Notes under the pieces: generated by a model
The model's database searches: none
Told to the model about the DNA's origin: nothing
What the model saw: only the letters and a program-made list of their open reading frames with translations
Shown here: positions 2,596-38,692 of the stretch, in pieces
Position numbering within the stretch: the stretch's first letter is position 1
Layout of the letters: each line of letters begins with the position of its first letter
Origin: a virus
Length of the DNA: 43,961 bases
Reading direction: 5' to 3' (one strand)
IMG/VR virus record: IMGVR_UViG_3300010355_000140
Translations under genes and position numbers: made by a program

Positions 2596-3759
2596 CTAGC
2601 TAGGGGTATTATGTATTTTTTCATTGGTCAGTTGGAGATTTTTGAAAATGCGGGGGCGCTCCTCCACGGGAAGGCGCTCCCATCGGGCGAGCAACATGGC
2701 ATTGGTCTCGCGGGCCAGCGGGTATTTGCCGGTGTAGAACGCGGCGATGGCCAGTTCATCGAGCATTGCCCAATCGTAAACGTCACGACGGATGAAGAGC
2801 GGGTTGGGTGGCACGGGAATCTGAACCCCGATGCTGGCGTAGAGGAACGCCAGATTCCACATTCCCTTCGACCGGTAGTATTGGGCCAGCTCGTGCATCG
2901 ACTCTGCCCGGTATGGGCACGCTTGATAGGCACGGAGGAATGAGTCGATCGCCATGGCTTCATAATGATCGCGGGCTTCTTCGTTCGCATTGGGGTGGTT
3001 GGCGAAGCCGATGAAAATCCGACCGATCGAAAGGTAACAGTAGAACACCTCCTGATCCCAACCGCCTAATGCTGCCCGCTCCTCATAGGCATCGACCGCC
3101 AGATAAAGTTCGTTGGCATCACGGTAGCTCTGTGCCAAGTAGAACTGGTAGCGGCTGCGCATCTGGGGGTCGGTCTCGGTAGCCAACGCCTTCACCAGCA
3201 CGGCGGCATCATCCTGATACTTCCGGGGGTTCTGGTTGCGGGCGGAGTCCTGAATCTGGTCGAGGTGGAAGCCGGACGTGGTGCCGGTCGTGCCGCCTTT
3301 CCGATCCAAGAACTCATGGAGGACTCCCTTATACTGGTAGGGTGTCTGCCGGTTGCGGTAGATCAACGGGACCGTGTGGGCATGGATGCCGGTGTGGACC
3401 TCCACGTTGAAGAACTCTTGGGAGCCTAGCTGGCTACGGAACTCTTCCGGAGTGACGGATGGGACGAACACATTGTCCGCGTCCACCATGAAGCCATAGT
3501 CGAACTCCGGGAATCGTCTCGCCAAGTCCGCCATCACAAGGGAACGGTTGTGGGCGAAATCCTGCCACGTCGCATCGTAAACAAACATGGCTTGATCCAT
3601 GTCATTCTCTTCCGCCCATTTGAGGATCGTTTGGATCGTGCCGTCCGTTGAGCCGGTGTCGTGGATCAAGATGAAGTCCACATAGTCTTTCAAAGAATCG
3701 AGGCACCGCCGGATGACGTGTGCCTCGTTCTTAACGATCATTGTAAGTGCGATAGTCAT
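2596..3759 (-). CDS. family-2 glycosyltransferase (GT-A fold) with C-terminal TPR-like helical repeats
   Basis: 387 aa. N-terminus IALTMIVKNEAHVIRRCLDSLKDYVDFILIHDTGSTDGT is the classic GT2 opening. DxD-like VDAD is present. The C-terminal half is helical repeat-like (YLAQSYRDANELYLAVDAYEERA...). Confidence 0.8.
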   Translation of the reverse strand: MTIALTMIVKNEAHVIRRCLDSLKDYVDFILIHDTGSTDGTIQTILKWAEENDMDQAMFVYDATWQDFAHNRSLVMADLARRFPEFDYGFMVDADNVFVPSVTPEEFRSQLGSQEFFNVEVHTGIHAHTVPLIYRNRQTPYQYKGVLHEFLDRKGGTTGTTSGFHLDQIQDSARNQNPRKYQDDAAVLVKALATETDPQMRSRYQFYLAQSYRDANELYLAVDAYEERAALGGWDQEVFYCYLSIGRIFIGFANHPNANEEARDHYEAMAIDSFLRAYQACPYRAESMHELAQYYRSKGMWNLAFLYASIGVQIPVPPNPLFIRRDVYDWAMLDELAIAAFYTGKYPLARETNAMLLARWERLPVEERPRIFKNLQLTNEKIHNTPS

Positions 3760-13863: not shown

Positions 13864-16695
13864 TTAGGGTGAACTTTTGGTTTTGGCACGGACCGCCAGA
13901 ATGGTCATCGGATAGGGGCCGGTTTGCCTCACCGAGATAGTTGGTTTCCGTTTCCATGTCGAGTTGATAGTGCATTGGGCGTCTCCCGACACCAGCGGGG
14001 CCGGGGAGGCGTCTTCGATCCTGTCAATCCCAATCTCCACCTTCGACCAGCTGGTAGCTACCTTGGGGGTCATGCTCATTTCCATGCCCAGCGAATTGCG
14101 GAAGCGGATGATGGCTTCCGTGACCGCGCCTTTCATGCCGATCACGCCGGATTCCAGTGGCATCGTCGTGATTAGCGAAGTGTAGGGGAGACCTACGATC
14201 GCGTTGTTCACAACCCGACCATTGTTGAGGACGATCTTGCCATCCGCGACAGTATAGGGGCCAAGGTCTTCACCGTCACCATAGACTTGGACCTGCATGC
14301 CTTCGAGGTGGCTGAGACCAAGGATGGTGTTGAACGTCTGTCCGATGGTGTTGACCTGCTGGACGAAGCTATCGAGGAACGTGAGGTTGGGCATGTCCAT
14401 GTCCTCCTCGCGGCGAAGCATGTCCGGGGTCATCCATTCGATGAACCGGCCATTGGAGCGTTCGACCACGGCGTAAAGGTCGTCGTCCTCCAGCCGACCG
14501 GTGCAGGTTGCGGCGGATTCGATGTATCCTTCGGTGATGAAGCGGGACCAGCCGACCACGTTCTGCGCACGTTCATACGTGAGGATCGCGATCTGGCCAC
14601 CGACCGTCAGGTAGAGCGTCGAGTCCGGCGCGTCCCCCGACTCCATCTGGACGACACCACCTCGGGTGATGTGGCTAGCCAGCTGGGTGAGGTCCACATT
14701 GGTGTATCCACCATACTCCACGGAGCCACCGACTAGTTCCTGAATCTTCCGTCCTTTCGACTGGAGGAACAGCACGTTGTTCTGGATCGGCACACCGGGA
14801 ATACCCTCGGCCACACCATGCCGGATGTTCCGGTTGTTGGCGTTGTTCTCCGGTGTGACGGACATGCCGTTCGGCGAGCTGATCGCCCAGATACCGGACG
14901 TGGTGCCGACCAGCAGCGAAAGGTGGCTGACCAGCCAGAGGACCGATTCGTATTCCGTCGCGTCGGTCTCGAAGCTCATGCCATCATCAGCCAGCGTGCC
15001 TTGGGTGAAGTCGAACGGTTTCCGCGTGCGGCTTGCCCATACTGTCTGGGTGCGGGCTTTCGATCCACCGAACCAGAGACGTTTCTGGTGGAAGGTGCAG
15101 GTCTTGGCGTAACCGTTCTTCGGATTGAACGCATCCTCATACCATTCGGTCGTGGCACCAGCGGACTCGAATTTCCGTTCCACCTGCCCTTGGACTTGGG
15201 TGGGGGTCGAATAGGTGTCGATCCGGAAGATGCCATAGGTGGTGACGGACAACGTGGTGAAATTGATCTTGGTGTCCATCCGGTTGTCGTCGAGGTCGAG
15301 CATGATGACACGCATCTGCGCGTTGGCGTCGAGGGTCTCGCTATCTTGGACAAGGAAATTCTTGTCGTTGTTCGACTGGCAGGTCTTGATTGGATTCCAA
15401 GTCACACCGTTGTCGTAGCTACGTTCGATCACGAACGTGCCCCGCCATGTGCCGGAGGTCTCGAAGCTCCACGCTCCACGGACCGCACGCGCCGGGACGA
15501 CGATCGCCCCTTGGTCGAAGTGCTGGGGATACTGGTCAGGATCAGTGAGACCCGGATCATAGTCACCACCCACGCCGTTGTAGGCCGAATAGGTGCGCCA
15601 GAACTCGCGGTTGCCGACCGGAATCAGACCGGCATACTTGCCGACGTTCCGGAGGAAGTTCGAGTCCTTGCGGATGACCTTGCCGATCGGGTAGTTGCCG
15701 GTGGTCGGGTTGAACGTGGGGATGCTTCCGAGCGATCCGAGTTCGGTTTCCGGTGTGGTGCGGTATGGCTCCTCGGGCCGGATGTTAGCCAGCCGGAGCC
15801 GGGTGCCAACCCATGCAGAGGAGAAGATGGGCGCACTGGCATTGATGTAGCCGAACGCATTCAGCGCCGTGACCGTAGGGGTCAGGGAAACCGGGTTCTC
15901 GGTCTCATAGACCTCCCACACACGCTCCTGCCATGGGAACGGGGTGATGACCCATGTGTCGTTCGGGTTGCGGAGAATCGTGTGCGTCTCCACGTCGCCA
16001 TGGGTGACAATGATGCGGTCGATCCGCTGCGCGAAATGCAGCGCCATGATCTGGTCCTCGGTCCATGGGGTGGTGTATTCCTGCACCAGAGCGAACGTCG
16101 GGTCGATCGTGACACCGATGGCTGGCTGGGTGGACAGGAAGTTGCGCCATGAGAGGACTTCCCAAGGATAGTCCACCTGCTGGTTGGCGAAGTAGAACTC
16201 CACGTTGACACCACCACGGCGCACGACGATCACCCAGACGGTGCCGTTGTGGCTGACTTGGATCGCGTGCGAGCTGGCACCGAACGATCCGCCGCCACCC
16301 GTGGACCAAGCTAGCTTGCCGTTGATCTGGTTGGCTTGGATAACGTCGAGGTTGGCGATCGATCCCTGTGTGATGCCCGCCATGGTGAGCTTCGCGGTGG
16401 CGGGGTTGTTGATGAGCAGCTTGCCGTTGCGGATCACACGCATCTTGAGGTGTGAGAACTCCATGGTATAGCCTTGCTCGGCGGAGAACCGAAAACCCTT
16501 GAGACGGGACTTGCGGTTCTGGTCATAGACTGGTGCCACCTTGCGGAAACCGGCACGGCGGGTCACACCGCCGACGCGGAGGACACGCACATTTTCAGCG
16601 GTCTCCAAGCCCATCTGGACTTTCTGGAGGTCGATACGACCGGCCATGTCATCGGACATTTCACCGGCATTAAGTGAGAATTTGGTCAGGTCCAT
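13864..16695 (-). CDS. tail tubular protein B (gp12-like nozzle)
   Basis: 943 aa. N-terminus ...LRVGGVTRRAGFRKV resembles podovirus gp12 openings. Sits directly after the tubular A gene (tgatttATG junction). Confidence 0.75.
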   Translation of the reverse strand: MDLTKFSLNAGEMSDDMAGRIDLQKVQMGLETAENVRVLRVGGVTRRAGFRKVAPVYDQNRKSRLKGFRFSAEQGYTMEFSHLKMRVIRNGKLLINNPATAKLTMAGITQGSIANLDVIQANQINGKLAWSTGGGGSFGASSHAIQVSHNGTVWVIVVRRGGVNVEFYFANQQVDYPWEVLSWRNFLSTQPAIGVTIDPTFALVQEYTTPWTEDQIMALHFAQRIDRIIVTHGDVETHTILRNPNDTWVITPFPWQERVWEVYETENPVSLTPTVTALNAFGYINASAPIFSSAWVGTRLRLANIRPEEPYRTTPETELGSLGSIPTFNPTTGNYPIGKVIRKDSNFLRNVGKYAGLIPVGNREFWRTYSAYNGVGGDYDPGLTDPDQYPQHFDQGAIVVPARAVRGAWSFETSGTWRGTFVIERSYDNGVTWNPIKTCQSNNDKNFLVQDSETLDANAQMRVIMLDLDDNRMDTKINFTTLSVTTYGIFRIDTYSTPTQVQGQVERKFESAGATTEWYEDAFNPKNGYAKTCTFHQKRLWFGGSKARTQTVWASRTRKPFDFTQGTLADDGMSFETDATEYESVLWLVSHLSLLVGTTSGIWAISSPNGMSVTPENNANNRNIRHGVAEGIPGVPIQNNVLFLQSKGRKIQELVGGSVEYGGYTNVDLTQLASHITRGGVVQMESGDAPDSTLYLTVGGQIAILTYERAQNVVGWSRFITEGYIESAATCTGRLEDDDLYAVVERSNGRFIEWMTPDMLRREEDMDMPNLTFLDSFVQQVNTIGQTFNTILGLSHLEGMQVQVYGDGEDLGPYTVADGKIVLNNGRVVNNAIVGLPYTSLITTMPLESGVIGMKGAVTEAIIRFRNSLGMEMSMTPKVATSWSKVEIGIDRIEDASPAPLVSGDAQCTINSTWKRKPTISVRQTGPYPMTILAVRAKTKSSP

Positions 16696-26273: not shown

Positions 26274-26592
26274 TAGGGCATTCTCTAAAATTGCCTGCCC
26301 TTAGAGCCGTAAAGGCTAGGGCATTCTAAAAATGGAATGCCCTAGGAATGCCCTCTCATAACTCATTGATTTGCATACCCCTTAGAAAACATTAGGGCAG
26401 TAAATATAAAAATCTGAAAATTATAACATGAAGCAATTATTTCAACGTGTTTCGCCTCTCATGTCATACGTATTATGATTTTTCGAGATTTACTGCCCTA
26501 ATGCCCTAAACAGCTTTCAAGCTATTCAATATAAGCTAGTTACAGAGAGGGCATTCCTAAAATGAGAATGCCCTAGAATGCCCTAATGCCCT
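26274..26592. repeat. array of 11 AATGCCCT / AGGGCATT repeats, two palindromes and a 14-nt long-range inverted repeat around an AT-rich core
   Basis: Copies are at 26274-83, 26317-26, 26335-44, 26346-55, 26393-400 (variant), 26492-500 (variant), 26500-08, 26548-56, 26566-74, 26576-84 and 26585-92. The inverted repeat is ttagggcagtaaat 26392-26405 / atttactgccctaa 26488-26501. Confidence 0.9.
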
Positions 26593-26653: not shown

Positions 26654-26682
26654 TTGACGCCAGCTATCCCCCTCAGTATATA
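26654..26682 (+). promoter_or_regulatory. promoter P1 (TTGACg-17-TATATA) with CTATCC..CTCAGT spacer box
   Basis: ttgacgccagCTATCCccCTCAGTATATA. First promoter of the plus arm. Confidence 0.7.
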
Positions 26683-26727
26683 CCGACCAGTGCTAGCACG
26701 AAGCTAGCCGCCAGAAAACAAACCAAA

Positions 26728-28691: not shown

Positions 28692-28718
28692 TTGACAAGC
28701 TATCCGGGCTAGTATATC
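28692..28718 (+). promoter_or_regulatory. promoter P2
   Basis: TAAttgacaagCTATCCggGCTAGTATATC. The -35 abuts the upstream stop codon. Confidence 0.65.
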
Positions 28719-28777
28719 TAGCCCGGAGACTAATGCAGCCTTGCCGGTCCCAAGCCCGGAGAAAATGCAGAGGGGTC
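28704..28777 (+). promoter_or_regulatory. AATGCAG composite element, copy A
   Basis: Hairpin ccgggctag/ctagcccgg. Box1 aatgcag at 28732-38. ccggtcccaagcccgg at 28744-59. Box2 aatgcag at 28764-70. ggggtc at 28772-77 pairs with ggtccc at 28746-51. Confidence 0.7.
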
Positions 28778-28799
28778 AGAAAACAAAACAGAAAACAAA

Positions 28800-29546
28800 A
28801 TGAACAATCGCGAACTCTCCCACCTCTGGGCCAATCAATCCCGCAAATCCGCCATCGGTTCAAACTTCTTCTTTGAAGGCGCAACCCTATATAGCTACGG
28901 CTATCATTTCAAAGTCGCACAACTCAAGACTTTGGAAGGCGGCGAACGCATCGCCCTTTTCAACCCTGACACATACTCCCAATCCACCACGCGGCACCAA
29001 TCGCTTGCGCGGGCCGCTGTCCATTGCGAGCTTTACTACCTCCCGTCCGATCGCTGGGAACACGTCAACACACCGGGCGAATTGGAACGCGAGCGGGCCA
29101 AGTATGAAGAGGACCGCCGGGTTGCCATTGAACGCGCCGACCGCGACCGGAAGGAACGCCAGAAAGCACTCCGCGCCCGCCGCAAGCTCGAAAAGCTGGG
29201 TGTGGAGAAACAGGTTGAAGAGTGGAAAGCCGGGCGCGTTTCCTATATCCCCGGCGTGCATTCCATTCCGGTCAAACTCCGCGTGAATGGTGACAAGGTG
29301 GAAACGTCATATTCCGCCAGTGTGCCCGTCGCCATGGCCAAGCGGGCATGGCCGCGCATCCTCAAGGCAGCGGCCACCCCCGGCCCCGTGGGCGCGGTCA
29401 TGCTCGATGCTCCGGACTTTGCATGGGGGGATTACAAGGGCATGAAACTAGAACGGACGGACGCCGGGGATGTGCTAGTTGTCGGTTGCCACCGGATCGA
29501 TTATTCCGAGGTCCGGTATATCGCCGACCAGCTCCAGTTGATCTAA
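28800..29546 (+). CDS. hypothetical protein (248 aa), central Arg/Glu-rich helix
   Basis: ATG is preceded by cagaaaacaaaacagaaaacaaa. No motif recognised. Confidence 0.65.
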   Translation: MNNRELSHLWANQSRKSAIGSNFFFEGATLYSYGYHFKVAQLKTLEGGERIALFNPDTYSQSTTRHQSLARAAVHCELYYLPSDRWEHVNTPGELERERAKYEEDRRVAIERADRDRKERQKALRARRKLEKLGVEKQVEEWKAGRVSYIPGVHSIPVKLRVNGDKVETSYSASVPVAMAKRAWPRILKAAATPGPVGAVMLDAPDFAWGDYKGMKLERTDAGDVLVVGCHRIDYSEVRYIADQLQLI

Positions 29547-29564
29547 TTTCATTGGTTCGCCGGC

Positions 29565-29662
29565 CCCTAGCCTAGCTAGGGTGCCCGGCTCTGGCAATGC
29601 AGCTCTCTCCCGCCATAATGGCGGGGCGGACCGGTCCCAAGCCCGGACAAATGCAGAGGGCC
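29565..29662 (+). promoter_or_regulatory. AATGCAG composite element, copy B
   Basis: Hairpin ccctagc/gctaggg at 29565-81. Box1 at 29596-602. Hairpin cccgcca/tggcggg at 29609-25. ccggtcccaagcccgg at 29631-46. Box2 at 29650-56. Confidence 0.7.
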
Positions 29663-29671
29663 AGAAAACAA

Positions 29672-29977
29672 ATGAAAACTTGGAACTACCATTACAAATC
29701 CGCCGCGCAAGCCCGTAAGGAAAACCCCGGCACCGATGGCGGGGGCGCGGATGGCTTCATTTATGAAGGCCACGGCATTGGAAAGAAAATCATTGCATTC
29801 CTGCCCCACCACCGCGACCCGGCGGAAGATGTGGAACGCGAGAAAATCGCCAAACTGTTAGCCGCCGCGCCGGAGCTACTCAACAAATTGACGGAGCTGG
29901 GCATTGCGCTAGAATATACTGAGCAAAGCCATCTTTGTGCCGACATCGAAACCCTAATCCAGAAAATCACCCAATGA
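29672..29977 (+). CDS. hypothetical protein (101 aa)
   Basis: Start is set at ATG 29672 (MKTWNYHY) after ccagaaaacaa. The track's 29597 start lies inside element B. Confidence 0.55.
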   Translation: MKTWNYHYKSAAQARKENPGTDGGGADGFIYEGHGIGKKIIAFLPHHRDPAEDVEREKIAKLLAAAPELLNKLTELGIALEYTEQSHLCADIETLIQKITQ

Positions 29978-30225
29978 ACGCTAACACGCACCCCGCCTAC
30001 CTGTTGAACGTCACGCACCGAAACGCCATGAAATGGCACCGGACGCAAATCAAGCTAGCTATCCTGACCGGAGATTGGCTTTACCTCCCATGGATGATCC
30101 AAGCGTGCCGCCGTGACCGGCGCGGGATCATCCGCCAGATGCGCGAGGCATGGGCGGACTACGCCCGGCGCGAGCTGGCTGTTCTGGGTAGCTCGCGACT
30201 CATTGCAGCCATCAGGTTCTACTGA
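29974..30225 (+). CDS. hypothetical protein (83 aa, basic)
   Basis: ATGA overlap with the upstream stop at 29974-29977. Confidence 0.5.
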   Translation: MNANTHPAYLLNVTHRNAMKWHRTQIKLAILTGDWLYLPWMIQACRRDRRGIIRQMREAWADYARRELAVLGSSRLIAAIRFY

Positions 30226-30243
30226 AAACCACCTGACCCATCA

Positions 30244-30274
30244 CCGGCCCGGAAATTTTCCGGGCCGGTTTTTT
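30244..30274 (+). terminator. intrinsic terminator
   Basis: ccggcccgg-aaatttt-ccgggccgg followed by tttttt. Confidence 0.85.
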
Positions 30275-30275
30275 A

Positions 30276-30303
30276 TTGACTGGATATACTAACCGGGTAT
30301 TTT
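30276..30303 (+). promoter_or_regulatory. promoter P3
   Basis: ttgactggATATACtaACCGGGTATTTT. The -10 ends 9 nt before ATG 30313, which implies a very short leader or none. Confidence 0.6.
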
Positions 30304-30312
30304 CGTGCGATT

Positions 30313-31296
30313 ATGGGAGGTAAACACAACCGTAACAACAAGGTTCGGCAACGCGCCCAGCAATCGATCCGAAAACATGAAGCCATGAAAAATCCATTTA
30401 AGAAAAAGGAGAAGCTACCCATCAGGGTGGATAAAATAGCTGATTGGGAACTCCCGGAGATGCCGCCGTGGGAGGTGGAAATGTTGAAGGCGGAGGCAGC
30501 GAAAGCACGGCAAGACCTCATCATGCGTGAGGACCAGCAGCGTCCGCAGCACCGTCTCCTCACCGAGCGCGAGTTCACAGAGCTTCGCTTCGACCTGCTC
30601 CGCAGGGGCCGGGATGGCTTGAACACTTTCTCACACGCCGAGCATCGCATCAGCGCGAAGATCGACCCCCATGAACTGTTCAGCATCGTGAACATCTATC
30701 CGCCGCATGAAGCACGGGACAGGGTGAACCATTTGATCCACCGCGTCAACCGGGTGGAACTACGCCCGGTGATGATGCCAGCCAGTCTGTTCGAGCGGGA
30801 GATGACGCGTGAGATGGAACAGTGGATGCGTGAAGCCGATCAGGAGGTCATGCGCCAGCTTCTCAAGAGCGGCATGTTTCCGCGTCCCGGCGAACACCCG
30901 CCGCTCCGGGATGACGTGCGCGAGAAGATCGACAACATGTTCCCCAAGGTTTCATTCAAAATGGAGCCACCACCAGAACTGGTCAGGCTGCAAAAGCGGA
31001 TGACCGAGCTGGATGCCAAAGGGCATTTCAAAGGCCGGAACTGCCGGACCAATTTCTTCGTGGGCGACAAGCTGCGGGCGATCGACCATAAGGTCATCCG
31101 GGGCCACTTCCGCGAGTGGGGCTATCCGGGCAAGGTTTTCGAGCTTTGCTATCATTCCGTGACCCCCGTGGAAATCTTCCCCGCCGAGCTGGAAGGTGCC
31201 GATGGGATGCAGATGGTCGTCCTTGAATTGAATCTTGACATCGGTGCGGTCGTCCTACCGGGCTACCTTTTCGAGCTGCATCCGGACGACGCTTGA
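30313..31296 (+). CDS. hypothetical protein (327 aa), very basic N-terminus
   Basis: Long ORF in the arm's orientation. No motif recognised. Confidence 0.65.
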   Translation: MGGKHNRNNKVRQRAQQSIRKHEAMKNPFKKKEKLPIRVDKIADWELPEMPPWEVEMLKAEAAKARQDLIMREDQQRPQHRLLTEREFTELRFDLLRRGRDGLNTFSHAEHRISAKIDPHELFSIVNIYPPHEARDRVNHLIHRVNRVELRPVMMPASLFEREMTREMEQWMREADQEVMRQLLKSGMFPRPGEHPPLRDDVREKIDNMFPKVSFKMEPPPELVRLQKRMTELDAKGHFKGRNCRTNFFVGDKLRAIDHKVIRGHFREWGYPGKVFELCYHSVTPVEIFPAELEGADGMQMVVLELNLDIGAVVLPGYLFELHPDDA

Positions 31297-31335
31297 CCAG
31301 CCCGCCCGCTTCTGCCATCCCTGACACCCCGACCG

Positions 31336-33690
31336 ATGGACATCCTGCAATTTCTCCCATCCGAACTCCGCGCTGCCGCCAGCAAGCTACCACCAGACAA
31401 GGCTCACACCGTCCTGACCCTCCCGCCCGAGGGCGAGGGCCACAATGCCGGTCTGGTCCGCGTGGCGGCGATCTGCTACCGCATGGGGGTGTCTTTCGAG
31501 GACACGCTGGCACACCTCAACGAAATCTACGCCTCTGACCGGCTGGATTACCGCACGGCACCGCGCCGGGCTGTCCAGCGGATTTGGGAGCGCAACGGGG
31601 AGATGCCCGAGGCGGGCGAGGAAGACACCATCCCGGACCATCAGGAGGAGTTCCTGCTGCGGTTCCGGCGCACGCCAGCCAGCCAGCTCATCGAGATGTC
31701 GCCGGAGTCGGTGAAGCAACGCCCCACGGCCATCGTCCGCCAGCTGTTCAAGCCTGAGCAGATCGTCAACGTCCAGTTCGGCAAATTCGAGGCGGGCACA
31801 CTGTTCAAGGTGGCTGACCTGCCCGATGACCTCCGCGAGTATAAGTTCCTCAACCCCTCCCACTTCAAGAAGGTGGAAGGCGTGCCCAACCCGCTCGACG
31901 GGGATAAGATCGCGACACGCTGCAATGCCAACGTGAAGGAGCGGCCCTACCTCGTCCTCGAAATGGACAGCAAGGATGATTCCAAGATCGAGCGGTTCAC
32001 GACGTTCGCCATGGAGCTTTCCAAGTTCGCGCCCATGGTGATGGCCGTGGACACGGGCAACAAATCGATCCACTTCTGGTTCGACGCACGCGACGAGGAC
32101 AAGGACCGCGTGCAGGCAATTTTCAAGCTGGCTGTTCTCCATGGGGCGGACAAGCAGATGGGTGTTAAATCCCAGATCGCACGGATGCCGAACGTGAGCG
32201 CATCCGATGAAGGCCGGGCCGCACAGCGTGTCCTCTACTTCGATCCCGAGGGCACCAACTATCCGGACAATGGCTGGGACGTGGCTGGCTTCGAGAAGTT
32301 CATCAAGCAAGCCCGGCAGCTCGAATACTACTATGACGGTAGTAGCGGGAAGTATTACGCGCAGAGCAACTCCGAAGCATGGATCGCGCTGGGCCGCACG
32401 TCCCTCACCAACCAGCTGGCCGGGCAAGGCTTCCGCGTCATGAAGCTGGAGGGTGAGGTTCTTTCGCCGGTTGAGATCACGATCAATGCGATCGAAATGG
32501 ACAAGTCGATCGAAGCGGCCATGAAAGGCGCGAGCGGTCGCCACGCTGGCTACTATGAGGAGAACGGCTTCCGGCTCTTGGTCATGAAGTCGCCGACGTT
32601 CATCAAAGCCCGCAAGGGCAAGTGGAAGACGATCGATGGGTTTCTCCGACACCTTCTTGACCACACACCCGAGCAATACGATGTCTTCATGGGTTGGCTG
32701 GCCAGCTCCGCCAAAGACCTCCGCAACGGTGGACGCCGCCGGGCACTGTTCTCGCCCGCGCAGTTCATGCACATCACCGGCCCGGCGGACTCCGGCAAAT
32801 CCCTCCTTCTGAAATTCATCCTGCCTGCGATTTTCGGCGGGCGCTCCGCTGACTGTGACGCACTGTTCGAGGACAAGGGAGCCAGTTTCAACTCCGACAT
32901 GTTCCAGAGTGAGCTGCTCTATCTGGATGACTCCGATGTGCTGCAAACGGACCACAAGTTCCGCGCCAAGTTCGGCGAGCGGATCAAATCATTCACCGTG
33001 GGAGCCGGTGGTAGCTACCACCAGAAATTTGGTGATAAGGTGCCGGTCGCCCCATGGTGGCGGTTCATCCGCCTCATGAACGAGGAGCCGCAGACCATCG
33101 CCACGCTGCCACCGCTGGAGGATGGCGTTGCCGACAAGATCATCATCCTGCGGGGCCAGAAGATGGACGGCGGGCCGATCGACAAGAGCAAGCCCGGCTG
33201 GTTCGAGCCGGTGCGTGAAGCGATTGAAAGCGAGCTGCCCGCGTTCCTCCACCATCTGTTGGAGGAATACCGCATCCCCGCCCACATCCAAGACCCGTCG
33301 AAGCGGTATGCCGTGAAGAGCTACCACAACGCCGACATCCTCACGCTGCTCGCCGAGGATAGCCCGGAGAGCTACCTTCACCACAAGATTTCCACCGATG
33401 CCTACAACCGTCTGTTCGTCGGTCTGGACGAGGATCAGCCGGAGCCATGGGAAGGCACCGCCAACGAGCTTTACACCCTTCTTTCGGAGACGGGCACCCG
33501 GAACGCGCAGGAACGATTCCGGAAGACATGCCCGTCTCCGAAGGTCTTGGCCAGCCAGCTACGTGCTGCGGCCAAAGCCCATCCTGACCAGTTTGTCTAT
33601 TCCGCGCCGAAGAAGAAAAACGGCGTGTATTTCTGGACAGTCAACCCTCCCGGTGTAACCCCAATCGTAACAGAAGATGACATCTTTTAA
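31336..33690 (+). CDS. bifunctional primase-polymerase (AEP) / SF3 (D5-like) helicase ending in VTEDDIF
   Basis: 784 aa. AEP-like motifs YLVLEMDSKD, TGNKSIHFWF and KSQIARMPN. Walker A ITGPADSGKS, Walker B LLYLDDSD. Confidence 0.8.
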   Translation: MDILQFLPSELRAAASKLPPDKAHTVLTLPPEGEGHNAGLVRVAAICYRMGVSFEDTLAHLNEIYASDRLDYRTAPRRAVQRIWERNGEMPEAGEEDTIPDHQEEFLLRFRRTPASQLIEMSPESVKQRPTAIVRQLFKPEQIVNVQFGKFEAGTLFKVADLPDDLREYKFLNPSHFKKVEGVPNPLDGDKIATRCNANVKERPYLVLEMDSKDDSKIERFTTFAMELSKFAPMVMAVDTGNKSIHFWFDARDEDKDRVQAIFKLAVLHGADKQMGVKSQIARMPNVSASDEGRAAQRVLYFDPEGTNYPDNGWDVAGFEKFIKQARQLEYYYDGSSGKYYAQSNSEAWIALGRTSLTNQLAGQGFRVMKLEGEVLSPVEITINAIEMDKSIEAAMKGASGRHAGYYEENGFRLLVMKSPTFIKARKGKWKTIDGFLRHLLDHTPEQYDVFMGWLASSAKDLRNGGRRRALFSPAQFMHITGPADSGKSLLLKFILPAIFGGRSADCDALFEDKGASFNSDMFQSELLYLDDSDVLQTDHKFRAKFGERIKSFTVGAGGSYHQKFGDKVPVAPWWRFIRLMNEEPQTIATLPPLEDGVADKIIILRGQKMDGGPIDKSKPGWFEPVREAIESELPAFLHHLLEEYRIPAHIQDPSKRYAVKSYHNADILTLLAEDSPESYLHHKISTDAYNRLFVGLDEDQPEPWEGTANELYTLLSETGTRNAQERFRKTCPSPKVLASQLRAAAKAHPDQFVYSAPKKKNGVYFWTVNPPGVTPIVTEDDIF

Positions 33691-33934
33691 TCCACGGCTC
33701 TGCTGCATCTGTGGCATCCGTCTCACCAACACAAACAAGCAGGCCACTGTCTGCTCCTACGCCTGCCGCATGGCACGCGACAACAACATCACACGGGAAC
33801 GGGCCATCCGTCTCTTTGGTGAGTATGAACACACCCAGAATGCCCGCCCCGAGCGTTACCGGAAAACGACCGGCAAGACCGGTTCCGTCACGATCGGCAA
33901 CATGAGCATCACCGGGAGGGTCCGCTATGATTGA
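33677..33934 (+). CDS. small zinc-ribbon protein (85 aa)
   Basis: CCICG...CSYAC cysteine pairs. 14-nt overlap with the primase stop. Confidence 0.5.
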   Translation: MTSFNPRLCCICGIRLTNTNKQATVCSYACRMARDNNITRERAIRLFGEYEHTQNARPERYRKTTGKTGSVTIGNMSITGRVRYD

Positions 33935-34118
33935 TAGCCGGTTCAAGTTGAACGAAGCGGACCTAAAGGCCGCATTCGATGCCGGGGTCCAGTATGCCAA
34001 AGACCCAGCCCGGTCAGCTAGCTTCAAGCACTGGCTAGCTGTTCAGGAATGCTACGCCGGGTTCGAGCTGTCGAAGGAAGCTCTCACGAAAGAAGTTTCT
34101 GAATCGGATATTTTCTGA
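33927..34118 (+). CDS. hypothetical protein (63 aa) ending in SESDIF
   Basis: 8-nt overlap with the upstream gene. Acidic C-terminal tip ending in Phe. Confidence 0.5.
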   Translation: MIDSRFKLNEADLKAAFDAGVQYAKDPARSASFKHWLAVQECYAGFELSKEALTKEVSESDIF

Positions 34119-34146
34119 TTGACGGGTATATCCTAACCAGTAAATT
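34119..34146 (+). promoter_or_regulatory. promoter P4
   Basis: TGAttgacgggTATATCCtaACCAGTAAATT. The -10 ends 7 nt before ATG 34154, the geometry expected for a leaderless mRNA. Confidence 0.6.
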
Positions 34147-34153
34147 TCCCGTC

Positions 34154-34663
34154 ATGCCAAAGTTACATTACGTCAAATCCGCACAAAAAGACAACTCCGT
34201 CGTGAAGAAGGGGCAACCCTACTGGTGGGCGAAGTTCAAAACCGGCCCATACACTTCACTGAAAAAGATGTGGGCCACGCGGCCCCGCCCGAGCCAGATG
34301 ACAATGTCGGTCTATTGGGGTCCAGTGTATGCGGTGCAGGAACACTTCGAGGACAGCACCATCGGCGACCTCGACGACATGCAGCCGCTCATCGACGATC
34401 TAGTCCAACAGGTGCAGGAAATTCTCGACGAAACGCAGGAGAAATTCGACAACATGCCCGAAGGACTCCAACAAGGTGACACTGGCCAGACGCTTGAGGA
34501 ACGCATCGGCAATCTTGAGCAGGTCGTTTCCGATCTCGAAAGCATCAACATCCCGGAGGATTCCGACTATGATGTGGACACCGATGGTGAGAAAGAGGAC
34601 TGGCTGGAAAGCCAGATCGATGACTTCCGCGCCGAGGTTGAAAACGCGCTCGCCAATTTCTAA
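34154..34663 (+). CDS. hypothetical acidic protein (169 aa)
   Basis: ORF directly downstream of P4. The C-terminal half is strongly acidic. Confidence 0.6.
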   Translation: MPKLHYVKSAQKDNSVVKKGQPYWWAKFKTGPYTSLKKMWATRPRPSQMTMSVYWGPVYAVQEHFEDSTIGDLDDMQPLIDDLVQQVQEILDETQEKFDNMPEGLQQGDTGQTLEERIGNLEQVVSDLESINIPEDSDYDVDTDGEKEDWLESQIDDFRAEVENALANF

Positions 34664-34691
34664 CTCTCCCAACAAACCAAAAATAGAAAAC

Positions 34692-35069
34692 ATGAACATC
34701 AATGTGACCATCCCCGCCCTCGACCGCCTCGTGGATTTCCTCGAAAAAGCGATCGGAGAAAAACTGCCCGGTTTCACCCCCGGCGCACCAGCCGCAGCTG
34801 AACCAAAGCCGAAGGGCAAAGGCAAAGCCGCACCGGCTGAAACTCCAGCTCCCGAAGCCGAACCCGAGAAGGCACCCGAAGGGCCGACCCTCAAGGAAGT
34901 CGAAGAAGCAGCCCGTGGCTACATCGCCAAGACCAGCCCGGCGGCGATCCGCAAACTGCTCGACGACAACGGCTTCAAAGGCAAGAAACTCGGTGAAGTC
35001 GATGCCAAGGAATATCCGAAGCTCCTCGAAGTCATCAGCAAGGCCACCGCAGAAGCCGACGTGATCTAA
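34692..35069 (+). CDS. hypothetical protein (125 aa) with Pro/Ala/Lys linker
   Basis: Start is set at ATG 34692 (MNINVT) after ccaacaaaccaaaaatagaaaac. The track's 34476 start overlaps the previous gene. Confidence 0.55.
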   Translation: MNINVTIPALDRLVDFLEKAIGEKLPGFTPGAPAAAEPKPKGKGKAAPAETPAPEAEPEKAPEGPTLKEVEEAARGYIAKTSPAAIRKLLDDNGFKGKKLGEVDAKEYPKLLEVISKATAEADVI

Positions 35070-35183
35070 CACCTTCCTACCTAGGACGGACGGAACTAAT
35101 GAAGTTCGGTGTTTATAGTAGCTACCATCACTCAAGTCATAGTCACTGAGAAAACTGCTACCTCTGGTTCCGTTCGAGACTCA

Positions 35184-35214
35184 CCCGCCATTCCGAAAGG
35201 GATGGCGGGTTTCT
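35184..35214 (+). terminator. intrinsic terminator (GAAA-tetraloop hairpin)
   Basis: cccgccattcc-gaaa-gggatggcggg followed by tttct. The T-tract is short. Confidence 0.6.
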
Positions 35215-35221
35215 AGGTGCC

Positions 35222-35446
35222 ATGGGTTCACGTCCACTCAACATACCTGACCCGCCGCCACCTACGCCTGTTATATGGGAGCTGGAGCGCAAGGAACTCA
35301 TATTCATGACCCCGAAGGGGCCGGTCCCCATTCAATGCCCCAGCTGTGGAGCGCCAATGGTGTCCGCGTTCGTGTGCGACTACTGTGGCACCAAGTTTTT
35401 CAACCAATATGACAACACCAGCAGACGCCAACCACCCGCACTATGA
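35222..35446 (+). CDS. small zinc-ribbon protein (74 aa)
   Basis: CPSCG...CDYCG motif. Confidence 0.5.
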   Translation: MGSRPLNIPDPPPPTPVIWELERKELIFMTPKGPVPIQCPSCGAPMVSAFVCDYCGTKFFNQYDNTSRRQPPAL

Positions 35447-36725
35447 GTGGGGCGCTTCCTCCGCCAAGCAATGGCGCGGGTGCCCCGGCTCAGTAAACCT
35501 CGTCATTCAGAAGAAAGCCGAGGGTGTGATCCCCAAAGACACCAGCACGCGCTTCTCCGACGAAGGCACGCAAGCCCATGATTGGGCCGACAAATGCCTG
35601 ACCGGAAAGATCAAGCGGGCTGATATACCAGCCGAGTTCCTCGAACATCTCGGTGGCTACCTCGACCTAGCTGGCGAGCTGGCCATGGAGAACGGAGGGC
35701 AGGTCTTCAACGAGCAACAGGTCAAACTTTTCTACTCGAAGAAGCCGGAGGATTGGGACACCAATCCGATCTATTTTGTTGAAGACATACGCAATGGTGG
35801 AATGATTCCACCGGGCGAGTGGAAACAAGCAACCGGCACACTCGACTACGCGGTGGTGAGCAACGATCGCGTTGACATCCTCGACCTGAAATACGGTGCG
35901 GGTGTGTTCGTGGATGCCAGTGAGAATGACCAGCTGGCTATCTATGCCCTCTCCCTGATGAAGCAGTTCGAGGAAGCATTCGAGTTCACCGATGACACGA
36001 TCGTCCGGTGCAACATCTATCAGCCGCGCCACCGTGACTTCGACGGCGTTGCTTCATGGGAATGCACCTACCGTGAACTCAAGGACTATGGCATTGACAT
36101 CGAGCGCGACTACAAGGCCAGCAAGGCGGCGTCGATCCATGACCTCAAGCCATCGAAAGATGCCTGCCAGTTCTGTGATGCCCGCCGTGGCTGCACGGTG
36201 CGGGTAGCCAGCTTGTTCGAGGACATCCCGGACGAAGCCAACCCTATCAGCTCCAAGTTCGATCCGTCGAAGCTGGAAGCCGAGGGTGTGACCGATCTGG
36301 TGCGCCTCCGCGTGTTCGAGAAGGGCAAGGAAATCGCCAAGTGGTTCGCCGATGTCAACGAAGACTCGCTCGCCATGATCGAGCGCGGTGTGCCGATCAC
36401 CGGTCTGAAATCCGTGGACGGTGGCAAGGGCAACCGCTCATGGGGCAATGAAACTGATGCCGCGAAACTCCTTCGTGAGCTGCCAGCCGAGGTGAAGTTC
36501 CTCCCGCGCCGTCTGATCTCCCCGGCGCAGGCCGAAGCCGCACTCAAGAAAGCCGGTCTGCCATTTGAAAAGCAGTCCACGAAGTTCAAGAACCGGTGGA
36601 AGCAGATCATCAAGCAGGCCGAGGGCAAGCCTTCTCTGGCGCTGGAAAGCGACAAGAAACCGGCCCGTGTTTCCGCCCCGGAAAAGTTCGATGACGAAAC
36701 AATTACGGAAGATGACGTTTTTTAA
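35409..36725 (+). CDS. PD-(D/E)XK / Cas4-like exonuclease (DUF2800-like) ending in ITEDDVF
   Basis: WGASSAKQWRGCPGS near the N-terminus. LDLKYGAGV core. C-terminal Cys cluster DACQFCDARRGC. Start ATG 35409 is preferred; 35346 is an alternative. Confidence 0.7.
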   Translation: MTTPADANHPHYEWGASSAKQWRGCPGSVNLVIQKKAEGVIPKDTSTRFSDEGTQAHDWADKCLTGKIKRADIPAEFLEHLGGYLDLAGELAMENGGQVFNEQQVKLFYSKKPEDWDTNPIYFVEDIRNGGMIPPGEWKQATGTLDYAVVSNDRVDILDLKYGAGVFVDASENDQLAIYALSLMKQFEEAFEFTDDTIVRCNIYQPRHRDFDGVASWECTYRELKDYGIDIERDYKASKAASIHDLKPSKDACQFCDARRGCTVRVASLFEDIPDEANPISSKFDPSKLEAEGVTDLVRLRVFEKGKEIAKWFADVNEDSLAMIERGVPITGLKSVDGGKGNRSWGNETDAAKLLRELPAEVKFLPRRLISPAQAEAALKKAGLPFEKQSTKFKNRWKQIIKQAEGKPSLALESDKKPARVSAPEKFDDETITEDDVF

Positions 36726-36752
36726 TTGACGAACTATCCTCACCAGTATAAT
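36726..36752 (+). promoter_or_regulatory. promoter P5 (best match: TTGACG ... TATAAT)
   Basis: TAAttgacgaaCTATCCtcACCAGTATAAT. The spacer is only 15 nt. Confidence 0.65.
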
Positions 36753-36802
36753 TCTCCCAACGTCCACGACGGACATCCAAACAAACCAAAACAGAAAACA
36801 AG

Positions 36803-37492
36803 ATGAACAAAGCAAAATTCGACGCCGCCCTCCAGCCACTCCTTCAACCTATCTCCGAGTTGCTCGCGGAGCATGGTGTGGATTCCGGCACTCTCAGTTT
36901 CAAAGTCAGCCCGCTCGATGTGGGCTGGGAAGTCAAAGCGGTGGGAGGTGGCAAGCCACGCCTGTCCACGGAAGAGTTCGAGAAGAAGGTCCGCAGCTCC
37001 CCGCTGGGTGCCGCCCTCACGAGTCTCTTTGGTGCCGACATCGTCAACGCAGCGTTCGCCGACATGCGCGGTGAGAAAGAAGCTGCTGATGTCGAACCCA
37101 ACGCCGCCCAGCTCAAGTGGGGTGTTGAAAACCTCGAACGTATCAACGCCGTCGCTCCGCACCCGTTCACGGCGGAGGATGTGGGTGAAATGGTCAAGGT
37201 CTTCATCAACGAAGCCCCACCCAAAGACCTCCACGGGTATGACGAGGTCGTTCGCTTCCGCGAGGAACTCGCCGAGCTGGCTGGTGTTCGCACCATCCCA
37301 ACCTCGAAGATGGTGGACTACGTCACGGCCAACGCTGCCCGCATCTCGAAAGCCAGTGGCATCCCGGCGGCTGATGTGGTCGCCGAGGCATACCGGATCG
37401 CGGAGGAACTCCTGAACGATCGCGAGCCTTGCGGGTGTGGCAAACCTGATTGCTTCGACACGTTCGCCAAGGAACTCCGCGCCATCAAATAG
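36803..37492 (+). CDS. hypothetical protein (229 aa)
   Basis: ATG is preceded by aaaccaaaacagaaaacaag. No motif recognised. Confidence 0.6.
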   Translation: MNKAKFDAALQPLLQPISELLAEHGVDSGTLSFKVSPLDVGWEVKAVGGGKPRLSTEEFEKKVRSSPLGAALTSLFGADIVNAAFADMRGEKEAADVEPNAAQLKWGVENLERINAVAPHPFTAEDVGEMVKVFINEAPPKDLHGYDEVVRFREELAELAGVRTIPTSKMVDYVTANAARISKASGIPAADVVAEAYRIAEELLNDREPCGCGKPDCFDTFAKELRAIK

Positions 37493-37494
37493 CC

Positions 37495-37563
37495 AAGCCC
37501 TTCGGGGCAATGCGACCTAGCCAGTAGCTAGCCGGTCCCAAGTCCGGATGAACGCAGAGGGAC
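37495..37563 (+). promoter_or_regulatory. AATGCAG composite element, copy C (variant boxes aatgcga / aacgcag)
   Basis: Hairpin gccc-ttcg-gggc at 37497-508. Box1 at 37509-15. Hairpin ctagc/gctag at 37517-31. ccggtcccaagtccgg at 37532-47. Box2 at 37551-57. gggac pairs with gtccc. Confidence 0.65.
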
Positions 37564-37582
37564 AACCCAACATACCAACATA

Positions 37583-37960
37583 ATGAAAACAATCATCGCC
37601 GCCAATTACTTCAACCGTAAAGACAAAGACAATCGCTGGCTCACCCGTCCTTTCGATGTCGAAGAGCCGGAGGAAAAGGACTGCCAACTCCACGCCGGGC
37701 TTATCATCGGCAAGGCGCACGCCATCACCAGCCCGGAGTTCGAGGAGGGCTTCGGTTGCTCCGTGGTTCTGGAAACCGAGGACTCCACCGCCGAACTGGC
37801 CAAGGACTTCGACATCACCAGTTTCAAGGCAGCTGGCTACGTCCAGCTGAAATTCGATGGTTATGCCTTCTGCCCGGTGAAAACCTTGCTCAAAGTGGAA
37901 CACTTCGACGGCATCATTCTCTTGCCGAACGGTGAGATGTGGGGCAAGATTTCGGAGTAA
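37583..37960 (+). CDS. hypothetical protein (125 aa)
   Basis: ORF follows element C and an A/C-rich leader. Confidence 0.55.
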   Translation: MKTIIAANYFNRKDKDNRWLTRPFDVEEPEEKDCQLHAGLIIGKAHAITSPEFEEGFGCSVVLETEDSTAELAKDFDITSFKAAGYVQLKFDGYAFCPVKTLLKVEHFDGIILLPNGEMWGKISE

Positions 37961-38040
37961 GCCCTCCGGGGCTAATGCAGCCCGGCTACTAGCGTTCTAG
38001 TAGCTGGCCGGTCACAAGCCCGGATGAATGCAGAGTGGCC
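37961..38040 (+). promoter_or_regulatory. AATGCAG composite element, copy D
   Basis: Hairpin gccc-tccg-gggc at 37961-72. Box1 at 37974-80. 11-bp hairpin at 37982-38007. ccggtcacaagcccgg at 38008-23. Box2 at 38027-33. gtggcc at 38035-40 pairs with ggtcac at 38010-15. Confidence 0.7.
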
Positions 38041-38056
38041 CAAACCAGAAAACACA

Positions 38057-38692
38057 ATGGAACTCAAGGTAAAAAACGCACGCTTGTCCTTCGCCAACAT
38101 TCGCAAACCCTATACTCCCAAGACGGGGGATGCGAAGTATCGCTGCAATCTCATTTGCGACGAGAACACGAAGGTCGAGATCAAGAAGGAAGACGGCACG
38201 AAGATCACCGTCCCGCATCACCGCATGCAGGAGATCATCGATAAAATCCTCAAGGACAAATGGGGCAAGCTGCCCGGCAAGTTGGAGAACTATCTCTACA
38301 ACCGCGCCGACACGCAGGTTGGCCCACGCGGTCCGATGCTCAACACGGACGGCGAATACTACGAGGGCTACGACAAGGACACCATGTTCTTCGCTGCCGG
38401 TGCCAAGGTCGCGGATCGCCCCGAGGGCATCCTTATCATCGACCAGAAGCGCGAGCCGTTGCCAGCCAGCTCCGGCCACCCTGTCAGCGGTGACTATGTG
38501 AACGCGATCATCAACGCGTTCGCCTACGAATACGAAGGCAAGAAGGGTGTGTCCGCCTCGCTCGACGCGATCCAGTTCCTCCGCAAAGGGAAACCGTTCG
38601 GTGCCACCCGCGCCACGGCGGATTCCTTCGACGAGGAAGAGCTGGAGGACGAAGAAGAGGAAGAAGCCGATGACGGCGGTGGCATCTTCTGA
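38057..38692 (+). CDS. ssDNA-binding protein (DUF2815-like) with acidic tail ...EEEEADDGGGIF
   Basis: Start is set at ATG 38057 (MELKVKNARLSF) after ccagaaaacaca. The track's 38024 ATG lies inside box 2 of element D. Position is between the nuclease and the polymerase. The C-terminal tip is SSB-like. Confidence 0.65.
   Translation: MELKVKNARLSFANIRKPYTPKTGDAKYRCNLICDENTKVEIKKEDGTKITVPHHRMQEIIDKILKDKWGKLPGKLENYLYNRADTQVGPRGPMLNTDGEYYEGYDKDTMFFAAGAKVADRPEGILIIDQKREPLPASSGHPVSGDYVNAIINAFAYEYEGKKGVSASLDAIQFLRKGKPFGATRATADSFDEEELEDEEEEEADDGGGIF

Follow-up and report, generated by a model that had tools for sequence, protein, structure and literature searches.

Genome Context and Placement of the Elements

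The DNA analysed here (IMG/VR record IMGVR_UViG_3300010355_000140; 43,961 nt, the whole of which is referred to as the window) is essentially the whole genome of an uncultivated marine virus of podophage type, the longest contig with the same proteins being 43,966 bp. The minus strand carries a structural arm with terminase, portal, capsid, and tail genes, and the plus arm encodes an AAA/CobS-like ATPase, a DUF7192 gene, a primase-helicase, an exonuclease, a Gp2.5/Enc34-type single-stranded DNA-binding protein (SSB), a family-A DNA polymerase, and a SNF2 helicase. No phage RNA polymerase and no tRNA were found in the window, and neither megablast nor blastn matched the region to any of 50,697 phage records, leaving the phage without an annotated relative. 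The plus arm contains a repeated intergenic element in four copies (A, B, C, and D), all on the plus strand, and the subject of this report is the assignment of these four elements, on grounds of sequence, structure, and covariation, to the type-P1 twister self-cleaving ribozymes (Rfam RF03160) and their probable role in dividing the early messenger RNA (mRNA).

A preliminary description of the window had placed the four copies at 28704–28777, 29565–29662, 37495–37563, and 37961–38040, in spacers running from a stop codon to a start codon. The sequence is as described there, and no fifth copy is present in the window. Each copy lies on the coding strand of co-directional genes, directly past a stop codon and before the next ATG. 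The 17-nt core CCGGTCCCAAGCCCGGA is found unchanged at 28744 and 29631, in single-mismatch form at 37532 and 38008, and nowhere else. A 30-nt composite pattern allowing up to three mismatches gave three matches in the window versus none in 100 shuffles; copy A was missed by this pattern because its linker is 1 nt longer. The motif AATGCAG alone is not enriched, with 10 matches window-wide versus 6.3 expected and 10 of 100 shuffles reaching 10. The reported clustering does hold, and it is the boxes clustered in pairs, six exact and two variant within the four spacers, that form the non-random signal. The box-to-box distances (32 nt in A, 54 in B, 42 in C, and 53 in D) agree with those given before, but their closeness to whole helical turns carries no meaning of its own, as the distance simply follows the length of an optional hairpin (P3, see below). 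Likewise, the A/C-rich leader that had been counted as a part of the element is carried by nearly all genes of the genome.

The ribozyme pairs A/B and C/D each bracket one single gene. The gene between A and B (gene X; 28800–29546, plus strand) encodes a 248-aa protein of phrog_7247, a function-unassigned family, and had no Pfam, NCBIfam, or PDB sequence match. Copies C and D sit downstream of the A/B unit, between the exonuclease and SSB genes, and bracket a 125-aa ORFan (37583–37960, plus strand) with no homologue but itself among 5.8 billion protein clusters. Copy D lies 16 nt upstream of the start codon of the SSB gene (38057–38692, plus strand; phrog_112, 4.9e-32; PF10991, 7e-26). Copies C and D are not assembly artefacts because identical copies are present in three independent assemblies (L176–L178).

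Architecture of the Elements

From 5′ to 3′, the element begins with a P0 hairpin, the 5′ strand of P1 (3–4 nt), the base preceding the scissile bond (N-1), the predicted cut, AA, and the P2 5′ strand UGCA. These are followed by GC, which forms the pseudoknot T2, the P3 hairpin (not in A), and the P4 strand CCG, which closes loop L4 and is answered by CGG. Loop L4 has the layout G-U-CCC(T1)-AA-GC(T2)-C, and CCGGTCCCAAGCCCGG corresponds to P4 plus L4. The 3′ part consists of an A-rich linker, the P2 3′ strand UGCA, G-A-GGG, in which GGG forms the second pseudoknot T1, and the P1 3′ strand. The layout of a variable first hairpin and an optional second hairpin given in the preliminary description is confirmed, the former being the optional stem P0 and the latter P3. 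Its twin boxes are present as seen but are actually the two strands of P2 plus conserved loop bases; they mimic direct repeats because UGCA is self-complementary and each strand has A's and a G beside it. The helix GGTCCC:GGG(R)CC proposed there is correct as to CCC:GGG, which is T1, whereas the GG belongs to P4/L4 and the (R)CC to the P1 3′ strand, and the seemingly variable partner of the T (G, bulge, A, and G in the four copies) is an artefact of the wrong pairing register.

The P2 stem (4 bp) is UGCA/UGCA in A, B, and D and UGCG/CGCA in C, and P4 is CCG/CGG in all four copies. The L4 sequence GUCCCAAGCC is exact in A and B and differs by C to U in copy C and by C to A in copy D, each change being compensated in the pseudoknot partner. 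Accordingly, T1 is CCC:GGG in A, B, and C and CAC:GUG in D, and T2 is GC:GC in A, B, and D and AC:GU in C (A:U for G:C). The cleavage dinucleotide and the second A read U^AA in A and D and C^AA in B and C, and the G of GAG(G/U)G after the P2 3′ strand is kept throughout. Stem P1 can form in A (3 bp, GAC/GUC), B (4 bp, CUGG/CCAG), and D (4 bp, GGGC/GCCC).

In copy A (all features on the plus strand, here and in the other copies), P0 occupies 28704–28726 as CCGGGCUAG-UAUAU-CUAGCCCGG, a 10-bp hairpin in the minimum free energy (MFE) fold that abuts P1 and would be the 3′-terminal structure of the upstream mRNA once cleaved. The ribozyme itself is of type P1 without P3 and spans 28727–28778, with P1 at 28728–28730 and 28775–28777, P2 at 28734–28737 and 28766–28769, P4 at 28744–28746 and 28757–28759, T1 at 28749–28751 and 28772–28774, and T2 at 28738–28739 and 28754–28755. 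The cut is predicted between U28731 and A28732, and the MFE fold recovers P0, P1, P2, and P4. A promoter-like stretch, TTGACA AGCTATCC ... TATATC with a 15-nt spacer (28693–28719), overlaps P0 of this copy. The P0 of copy B (29559–29589) is an imperfect, CTAG-rich 13-bp stem in the MFE fold, and the type-P1 ribozyme follows at 29591–29664, with P1 at 29591–29594 and 29661–29664, a long P3 with the core CCCGCC-AUAAU-GGCGGG, and a cut predicted between C29595 and A29596; all of P0 to P4 are recovered in the MFE fold. Both A and B carry CAGAAAACAAA after P1.

In copy C, P0 (37497–37508; GCCC-UUCG-GGGC) has a UUCG tetraloop, as seen in both the sequence and the MFE fold, and its last base, C37508, is the N-1 nucleotide. 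The ribozyme spans 37504–37565, with P3 as CUAGC-CAGUA-GCUAG, T2 as ACC with AAGU, and a cut predicted between C37508 and A37509. The MFE fold recovers P0, P2, P3, and P4, and the P1 pairs are flagged as non-canonical in the RF03160 alignment. Copy C represents a naturally P1-less twister in which P0 takes the place of P1, and it was filed as a variant rather than excluded because P1 is dispensable in experiments (PMC5408937). The P0 of copy D (37961–37972; GCCC-UCCG-GGGC, from sequence and fold) precedes a type-P1 ribozyme with an 11-bp P3 at 37969–38041, in which the cut is predicted between U37973 and A37974. The GGGC at 37969–37972 is both the 3′ arm of P0 and the 5′ strand of P1, making P0 and P1 mutually exclusive; the MFE fold has P1 and the centroid has P0. 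The P0 hairpins of C and D are identical at 11 of 12 nt and the two copies have a common linker, AUGAA, so that C and D look like a local duplication. Two ATG triplets lie within the ribozymes, at 29597 (in box 1 of copy B) and 38024 (just before box 2 of copy D). Both are in frame with the downstream genes, giving N-terminally extended open reading frames (ORFs) of 126 aa and 222 aa, and could mislead gene callers.

Assignment to the Type-P1 Twister Ribozymes

Both the twister ribozyme and its link with phage genes have been in the literature since 2014, and the core CCGGUCCCAAGCCCGGA of the present elements matches that of the rice Osa-1-4 twister letter for letter. The RF03160 model matches all four copies over its full length (model positions 1–68 of 68), with 53.9 bits for A, 54.2 for B, 47.1 for C, and 59.3 for D and whole-window E-values of 1.9e-9, 1.6e-9, 1.8e-7, and 5.6e-11, respectively, and no other Rfam family was matched at E ≤ 1 across the whole window. 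A default Rfam scan at gathering thresholds gave zero matches because all four scores are below the RF03160 gathering score of 67.2 bits; the use of E-value thresholds then recovered the four copies. Our own covariance model (R1), built from the four copies and 19 diverse viral sequences, was applied without filters to every position of both strands and found only the four copies (A, 59.8; B, 63.4; C, 59.9; and D, 66.5 bits), the next-best match in the window scoring 11.5 bits.

Twisters are defined by the essential stems P1, P2, and P4, two pseudoknots, and about ten invariant bases in L1 and L4, and are cleaved 5′ of a conserved A (PMC5408937, PMC6154101). The optional stems P0, P3, and P5 are found in 21, 78, and 1% of twisters, respectively (PMC6154101). 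Compared to twister type P1 (RF03160; Roth et al., 2014; Oryza sativa Osa-1-4, PDB 4OJI), the order of elements in the window copies is identical, namely P1, the N^A site, P2, (P3), P4 with its loop, the A-rich linker, P2′, GAGGG, and P1′, and both pseudoknots, the invariant loop bases, and the optional P0 and P3 are all present. The four copies thus have every structural hallmark of active twisters, cleavage itself being predicted. Family membership is established by sequence, structure, and covariation, and the placement of the copies is intergenic and on the sense strand. They are new members of a known ribozyme class, overlooked by threshold-based annotation.

Covariation and Folding

Three compensated departures occur within the window itself, in P2 and T2 of copy C and in T1 of copy D. 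In T2 of copy C, GCGACC pairs with AAGU through an A:U pair at a position that is G:C in 63 of 64 homologues. The compensatory change reported earlier for copy D is real (GGTCAC with GAGTG). The sequences of P0, P1, and P3 differ in every copy with pairing retained, except in C, which has no P1. Compensatory changes preserve every helix and the two pseudoknots, so that the fold is under selection in this genome. Folding by energy alone recovered P0, P2, P3, and P4 wherever they are present, as well as P1 in A, B, and D (with P0 instead in the centroid of D).

An exact-core scan of IMG/VR yielded 85 loci, most of them with the same architecture, and an R1 search of these loci gave 109 hits, 64 of which were distinct; the resulting alignment holds 64 sequences from 70 viral loci and the window. 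With both pseudoknots included, 95.2% of the alignment cells are paired and 17 of the 20 pairs show double changes, including pairs of both pseudoknots, although seeding the set on an exact core and fitting the alignment to the model each tilt the result somewhat towards the structure. None of 500 shuffles matched the observed covariation, and sliding the partner columns by 1–3 positions reduced the pairing to 29–50%. In P2, 99.6% of cells are paired and all four pairs show double changes, with variants such as TCGA/TCGA, TCAT/ATGA, TACA/TGTA, and TGTG/CACA. In T1, 99.5% of cells are paired, the middle pair being A:U in 10 of 64 sequences and the outer pair U:A in 2 of 64, although most of the T1 and P4 variation comes from second copies found by the model. 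For T2 the value is 100%. The action at the RNA level and the covarying long-range pairing that had been proposed from the four copies are thus upheld, in the form of T1, and the pairing is preserved in the viral homologues.

Twisters in Other Viral Loci

None of the 70 viral loci with twisters comes from a relative of this phage, as a tblastn search with 42 window proteins gave only one marginal hit among them. The same core was found in phages of very different hosts and base composition, and the genes downstream of the twisters include those for a Mu-like transposase and Gam as well as unrelated small early ORFs. Almost all of these twisters are flanked by ORFs of the same direction. An upstream ORF ends within 200 nt of the twister in 69 of 81 cases and a downstream start lies within 100 nt in 76 of 81 (counts of ORFs spanning the twisters were discarded as crude and unreliable in GC-rich DNA). 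At least two copies are present in 33 of the 70 loci, and short-spaced twister pairs (0.3–0.8 kb) recur in other phages (e.g., L014, L019, L044, L057, and L042). Nearly all twisters of the viral set have a P0-type hairpin next to P1 or overlapping it. The exact-core viral contigs also include other twister topologies (L017, L045, L067, L080; L006, L015, L031, L043), among them permuted forms in which a loop closes P1 (GAGGG-hairpin-UAAUGCGC...) and, in some contigs, a long P5-like insertion between P4 and the P2 3′ strand.

Hammerhead Ribozymes in Relatives

The relatives of this phage, with DNA polymerases 57–62% and SSBs 57–68% identical to those of the window, come largely from marine (TARA) metagenomes; a search for related loci with the SSB protein alone returned nothing. 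No twister was found in 50 DNA-polymerase loci of these relatives, in the nine SSB-containing contigs L179–L187 by motif search, or in six of the nine (L179–L184) with the R1 model, the screen of L185–L187 being confined to a hammerhead motif search, and Rfam scans of the relatives reported no twister. The exonuclease gene adjoins the SSB gene in the relatives, whereas the window has two extra genes there (encoding 229 aa and the 125-aa ORFan) together with copies C and D.

Two of the relatives carry hammerhead ribozymes of type I on the plus strand, four of them in L182 (at about 1156–1209, 2114–2169, 2832–2887, and 3632–3685) and one in L181 (2679–2738). The hammerhead core was spotted by reading the intergenic DNA of L182, followed by a pattern scan with helix checks. 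Each of the five lies between co-directional early genes at a junction equivalent to those of the operon described here, and the second hammerhead of L182, which immediately follows the DUF7192 gene, occupies the position syntenic to twister A. All five sequences have an invariant CUGAUGA/GAAA/UH core, and helices I–III covary at 8 of 17 pairs. Rfam did not report the L182 hammerheads even at E ≤ 10, and no hammerhead was found in the window by Rfam and motif searches. Matches to type II/III hammerhead patterns in distant loci were rejected as spurious coding-region matches. On the minus strand of the marine relative L181, an abiF RNA motif (RF03085) was also detected at 15766–15802 (43 bits versus a gathering score of 37).

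Hammerheads of phage and prophage operons (including RAGATH-1, RF03152) have the same chemistry and the same intergenic, sense-strand placement in early operons as the twisters here. The hammerhead fold, a three-way junction with a CUGAUGA and GAAA core, is unrelated to that of twister, and the cut falls near the 3′ end of the motif, leaving the body on the upstream RNA, whereas the body of a type-P1 twister stays on the downstream RNA. Because two unrelated folds of the same chemistry occupy the same kind of junction, the hammerheads at equivalent junctions point to the act of self-cleavage as the property under selection.

Hammerheads also accompany homologues of gene X in an unrelated phage clade of 33% GC (L086–L122), in which a type-I hammerhead follows the gene in 37 of 40 cases (e.g., L094, 3932–3997; L095, 2618–2680; and L108, 6877–6980). 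The hammerhead begins 0–6 nt upstream of where the stop codon ends, a conserved gene of 75 aa begins ~13 nt later, and one of these hammerheads gave a weak match to the RAGATH-1 hammerhead (29.7 bits). Neither ribozyme type was found in other lineages of gene X (L188–L194, and gut contigs of 90–150 kb, L198–L261), and the linkage between gene X and ribozymes is therefore suggestive, not general.

Proposed Role in mRNA Processing

The four type-P1 twisters probably self-cleave and thereby split the polycistronic early mRNA, serving its processing, insulation, and stabilization. The elements would be transcribed within the polycistronic early and replication mRNAs of the ~44-kb podophage and adopt the double-pseudoknot fold, with P2, P4, T1, and T2 in all four copies and P1 in A, B, and D. 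The backbone would be cut at (U/C)^AAUGC, 3′ of the N-1 base (U or C) and just ahead of the conserved A, during transcription or soon afterwards. The upstream message would then end in the P0 hairpin with a 2′,3′-cyclic phosphate, and the downstream message would start with a 5′-hydroxyl on the compact ribozyme fold, 8–22 nt before the next start codon. With the operon cut at four fixed points, the genes at 28800–29546 and 37583–37960 would be set free as monocistronic RNAs and the SSB message and others would be uncoupled from upstream sequence, each piece having its own stability and translation. A hairpin end with a 2′,3′-cyclic phosphate is a poor substrate for 3′ exonucleases and poly(A) polymerase, and a 5′-hydroxyl buried in the ribozyme fold would be a poor substrate for decay that depends on a 5′-monophosphate. 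Processing of polycistronic transcripts by twisters and hammerheads, possibly in phages, has been suggested before (PMC6765202), and the role of both ribozymes in bacteria and phages is still regarded as an open question (PMC6765202, PMC5408937).

The RNase III sites of T7 early mRNA likewise lie between the cistrons of a polycistronic phage transcript and leave a hairpin at the upstream 3′ end. However, the T7 sites are irregular duplexes of ~20 bp cut by a host protein, whereas cleavage in the window is predicted to be protein-free, and RNase III leaves a 3′-hydroxyl and a 5′-phosphate in place of the 2′,3′-cyclic phosphate and 5′-hydroxyl of a twister. The twister elements probably work like the T7 sites without being members of that class. 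Among the three roles put forward in the preliminary description, mRNA processing comes nearest to this reading, except that the element is a known self-cleaving ribozyme and a nuclease is not needed.

A bolder version, which we advance tentatively and with only a modest chance of being right, is that small self-cleaving ribozymes serve this clade as interchangeable, portable ‘expression insulators’ of accessory early genes, possibly with translation gated by cleavage. It fits the observation that equivalent junctions hold twisters here, hammerheads in L182 and L181, and nothing in other relatives, and that the ribozyme downstream of the phrog_7247 gene is a twister here but a hammerhead in the unrelated AT-rich clade. 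The genome is almost without Shine-Dalgarno sequences, and A/C-rich leaders throughout are a property of the genome. The leader motif CAGAAAAC occurs 7 times versus 1.6 expected (including window positions 26712, 28777, 28789, 29662, 36792, and 38046, plus strand), with five copies 2–8 nt before a start codon, and overlaps the P1 3′ strand in twisters A and B. Cleavage would release this strand and free the overlapped CAGAAAAC in A and B, so that translation of the downstream gene, in a system without Shine-Dalgarno sequences, would be switched on only after the cut. In synthetic insulators such as RiboJ, a self-cleaving ribozyme just upstream of the coding sequence standardizes the 5′ end, and in Tornado cassettes an RNA flanked by twisters is excised with 5′-hydroxyl and cyclic-phosphate ends and ligated by RtcB. 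Both are engineered systems, and in the window there is no complementarity between the excised ends; ligation of the excised one-gene RNAs into circular mRNAs by an RtcB-type enzyme is a more remote prospect.

With four twisters in one 44-kb phage, arranged as two gene-bracketing pairs, the window provides a compact natural case in which each twister has a hairpin placed to cap the upstream RNA, in a system lacking Shine-Dalgarno sequences. The series formed by this phage, with twisters, and its relatives, with hammerheads or no ribozyme, offers a comparative test of the effect of cleavage on mRNA stability, insulation, and translation. The value of the locus lies in this series and in the arrangement, with gene-bracketing pairs and P0 substituting for P1, which make the function of phage ribozymes approachable. 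Moreover, routine annotation of viromes under-counts such ribozymes, since the four twisters are sub-threshold and the L182 hammerheads went unreported at E ≤ 10.

Alternative Explanations

Several points weigh against cleavage of the mRNA for stability and insulation by typical twisters. All four RF03160 scores (47–59 bits) are under the gathering score, which is an annotation cut-off and not a structural criterion. Unlike in a typical type-P1 twister, P1 has only 3–4 bp in A, B, and D and does not form at all in C, where GGGG faces ACAA and cannot pair, and in copy D it competes with P0, with which it shares a strand. In twisters generally, P1 is phylogenetically conserved yet experimentally dispensable, a ‘mini-twister’ cleaving at a near wild-type rate (PMC5408937). 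The N-1 base is C, not the usual U, in copies B and C, and the base 5′ of the scissile bond has been called ‘less conserved’ (PMC5408937). The close relatives are without twisters, and those other than L181 and L182 without any ribozyme in the parts recovered, and the function is therefore dispensable for this type of phage. Finally, cleavage in vivo is inferred, and the role in processing, stability, and insulation is drawn by analogy with other systems.

The serious residual uncertainty concerns the purpose of the cut (processing and stability, end chemistry and ligation, or near-neutral hitch-hiking) and not the identity of the element. It is unlikely, in our view, that these genuine twisters serve a purpose other than splitting the operon for stability or insulation, of which two versions can be envisaged. 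In one, recombination would have brought the twisters in together with accessory genes, as hitch-hiking, nearly neutral boundaries between modules; in the other, end chemistry would be what counts, through removal of the triphosphate, RtcB-type ligation and circularization, or escape from a host nuclease or sensor. Such a purpose would suit the absence of twisters from all relatives at ~60% protein identity, their location in variable, accessory parts of the genome (such as the insertion of two extra genes between the exonuclease and SSB genes), the bracketing of a single gene by both pairs, one of these genes being an ORFan, and the recurrence of short-spaced pairs in other phages. Against these versions stand the compensatory changes that keep every helix and pseudoknot within this genome, the excised RNA ends, which have no obvious complementarity to bring them together for ligation, and the 5′-hydroxyl of the cleaved twister, which is reported to be buried in the fold (PMC8782182). 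The replacement by hammerheads in relatives fits any cleavage-dependent role and cannot separate these versions.

The remaining explanations dispense with catalysis by the RNA. Intergenic hairpins right after stop codons resemble the processing sites of T7 early mRNA, and the elements might be catalytically inert sites of a host endoribonuclease of the RNase III or RNase E type; we regard this as very improbable, as conservation falls on the twister core, with its two pseudoknots and its invariant loop bases, and not on a long duplex, and the same core recurs in phages of very different hosts and base composition. RNase III needs about two helical turns of duplex, and the stems are too short for this, P0 having 4–13 bp and P2 and P4 only 3–4 bp; the longest continuous stems reach 10 bp (P0 of A), 11 bp (P3 of D), and 13 bp (P0 of B, imperfect). 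A two-site DNA operator with AATGCAG half-sites, or a middle promoter dependent on a phage factor, had also been proposed, and would suit the two direct repeats with variable spacing, the promoter-like stretch overlapping P0 of A, and a weak 9/12 match within copy B, the only promoter-like match inside that copy. Neither proposal has any appreciable probability now, since the boxes pair with each other as P2 and vary in a complementary manner, as a Watson-Crick helix (TGCG/CGCA, TCAT/ATGA, TGTG/CACA) rather than as identical half-sites. All copies are also on the sense strand, promoter-like matches in the region (8) are no more frequent than in shuffles (7.7), and the motif precedes unrelated genes in the 70 viral loci, whose phages share no detected protein similarity apart from the one marginal hit. 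Equally improbable is an RNA operator for a translational repressor, for example in autoregulation of the SSB as in T4 gp32. The position of copy D just ahead of the SSB gene and the overlap of the ribozyme 3′ strand with CAGAAAAC in A and B would suit it, but three of the four copies precede other genes, the SSB genes of the relatives lack the element, and its homologues elsewhere precede transposase, Gam, and unrelated small genes.

Transcription Signals and Other Repeats

Several signals read from the sequence frame the A/B unit. A sigma-70-like promoter, TTGACG-17-TATATA (26654–26682, plus strand), lies ahead of the first plus-arm gene and probably starts the transcript that carries A and B. 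The true start of this gene is probably ATG 26728 and not TTG 26647. A strong intrinsic terminator on the plus strand (30243–30269), with a 12-bp stem and then TTTTTATT, probably ends this transcription unit. Further sigma-70-like promoters at 30276–30303 and 34119–34146 end 8–10 nt before ATG 30313 and ATG 34154, respectively, and promoters so close to the start codons suggest that the mRNAs may be leaderless.

The words AATGCCCT/AGGGCATT are present in ten copies versus 1.5 expected, nine of which are clustered at 26275–26592 in both orientations. The cluster coincides with the AT-rich divergent region between the two arms and resembles the iterons or operators of an origin or control region. 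The word CTAGCTA has 14 sites versus 0.5 expected (e.g., 1847, 2596, 6499, 17391, 29572, 37525, 38701, and 43681), which are mostly at gene junctions on both arms, some of them within P0 of twister B and P3 of twister C. In the L181 and L182 hammerheads, the helix II loops consist of the same GCTAGCTA word, and CTAGCTA may be a clade-specific palindromic junction motif.

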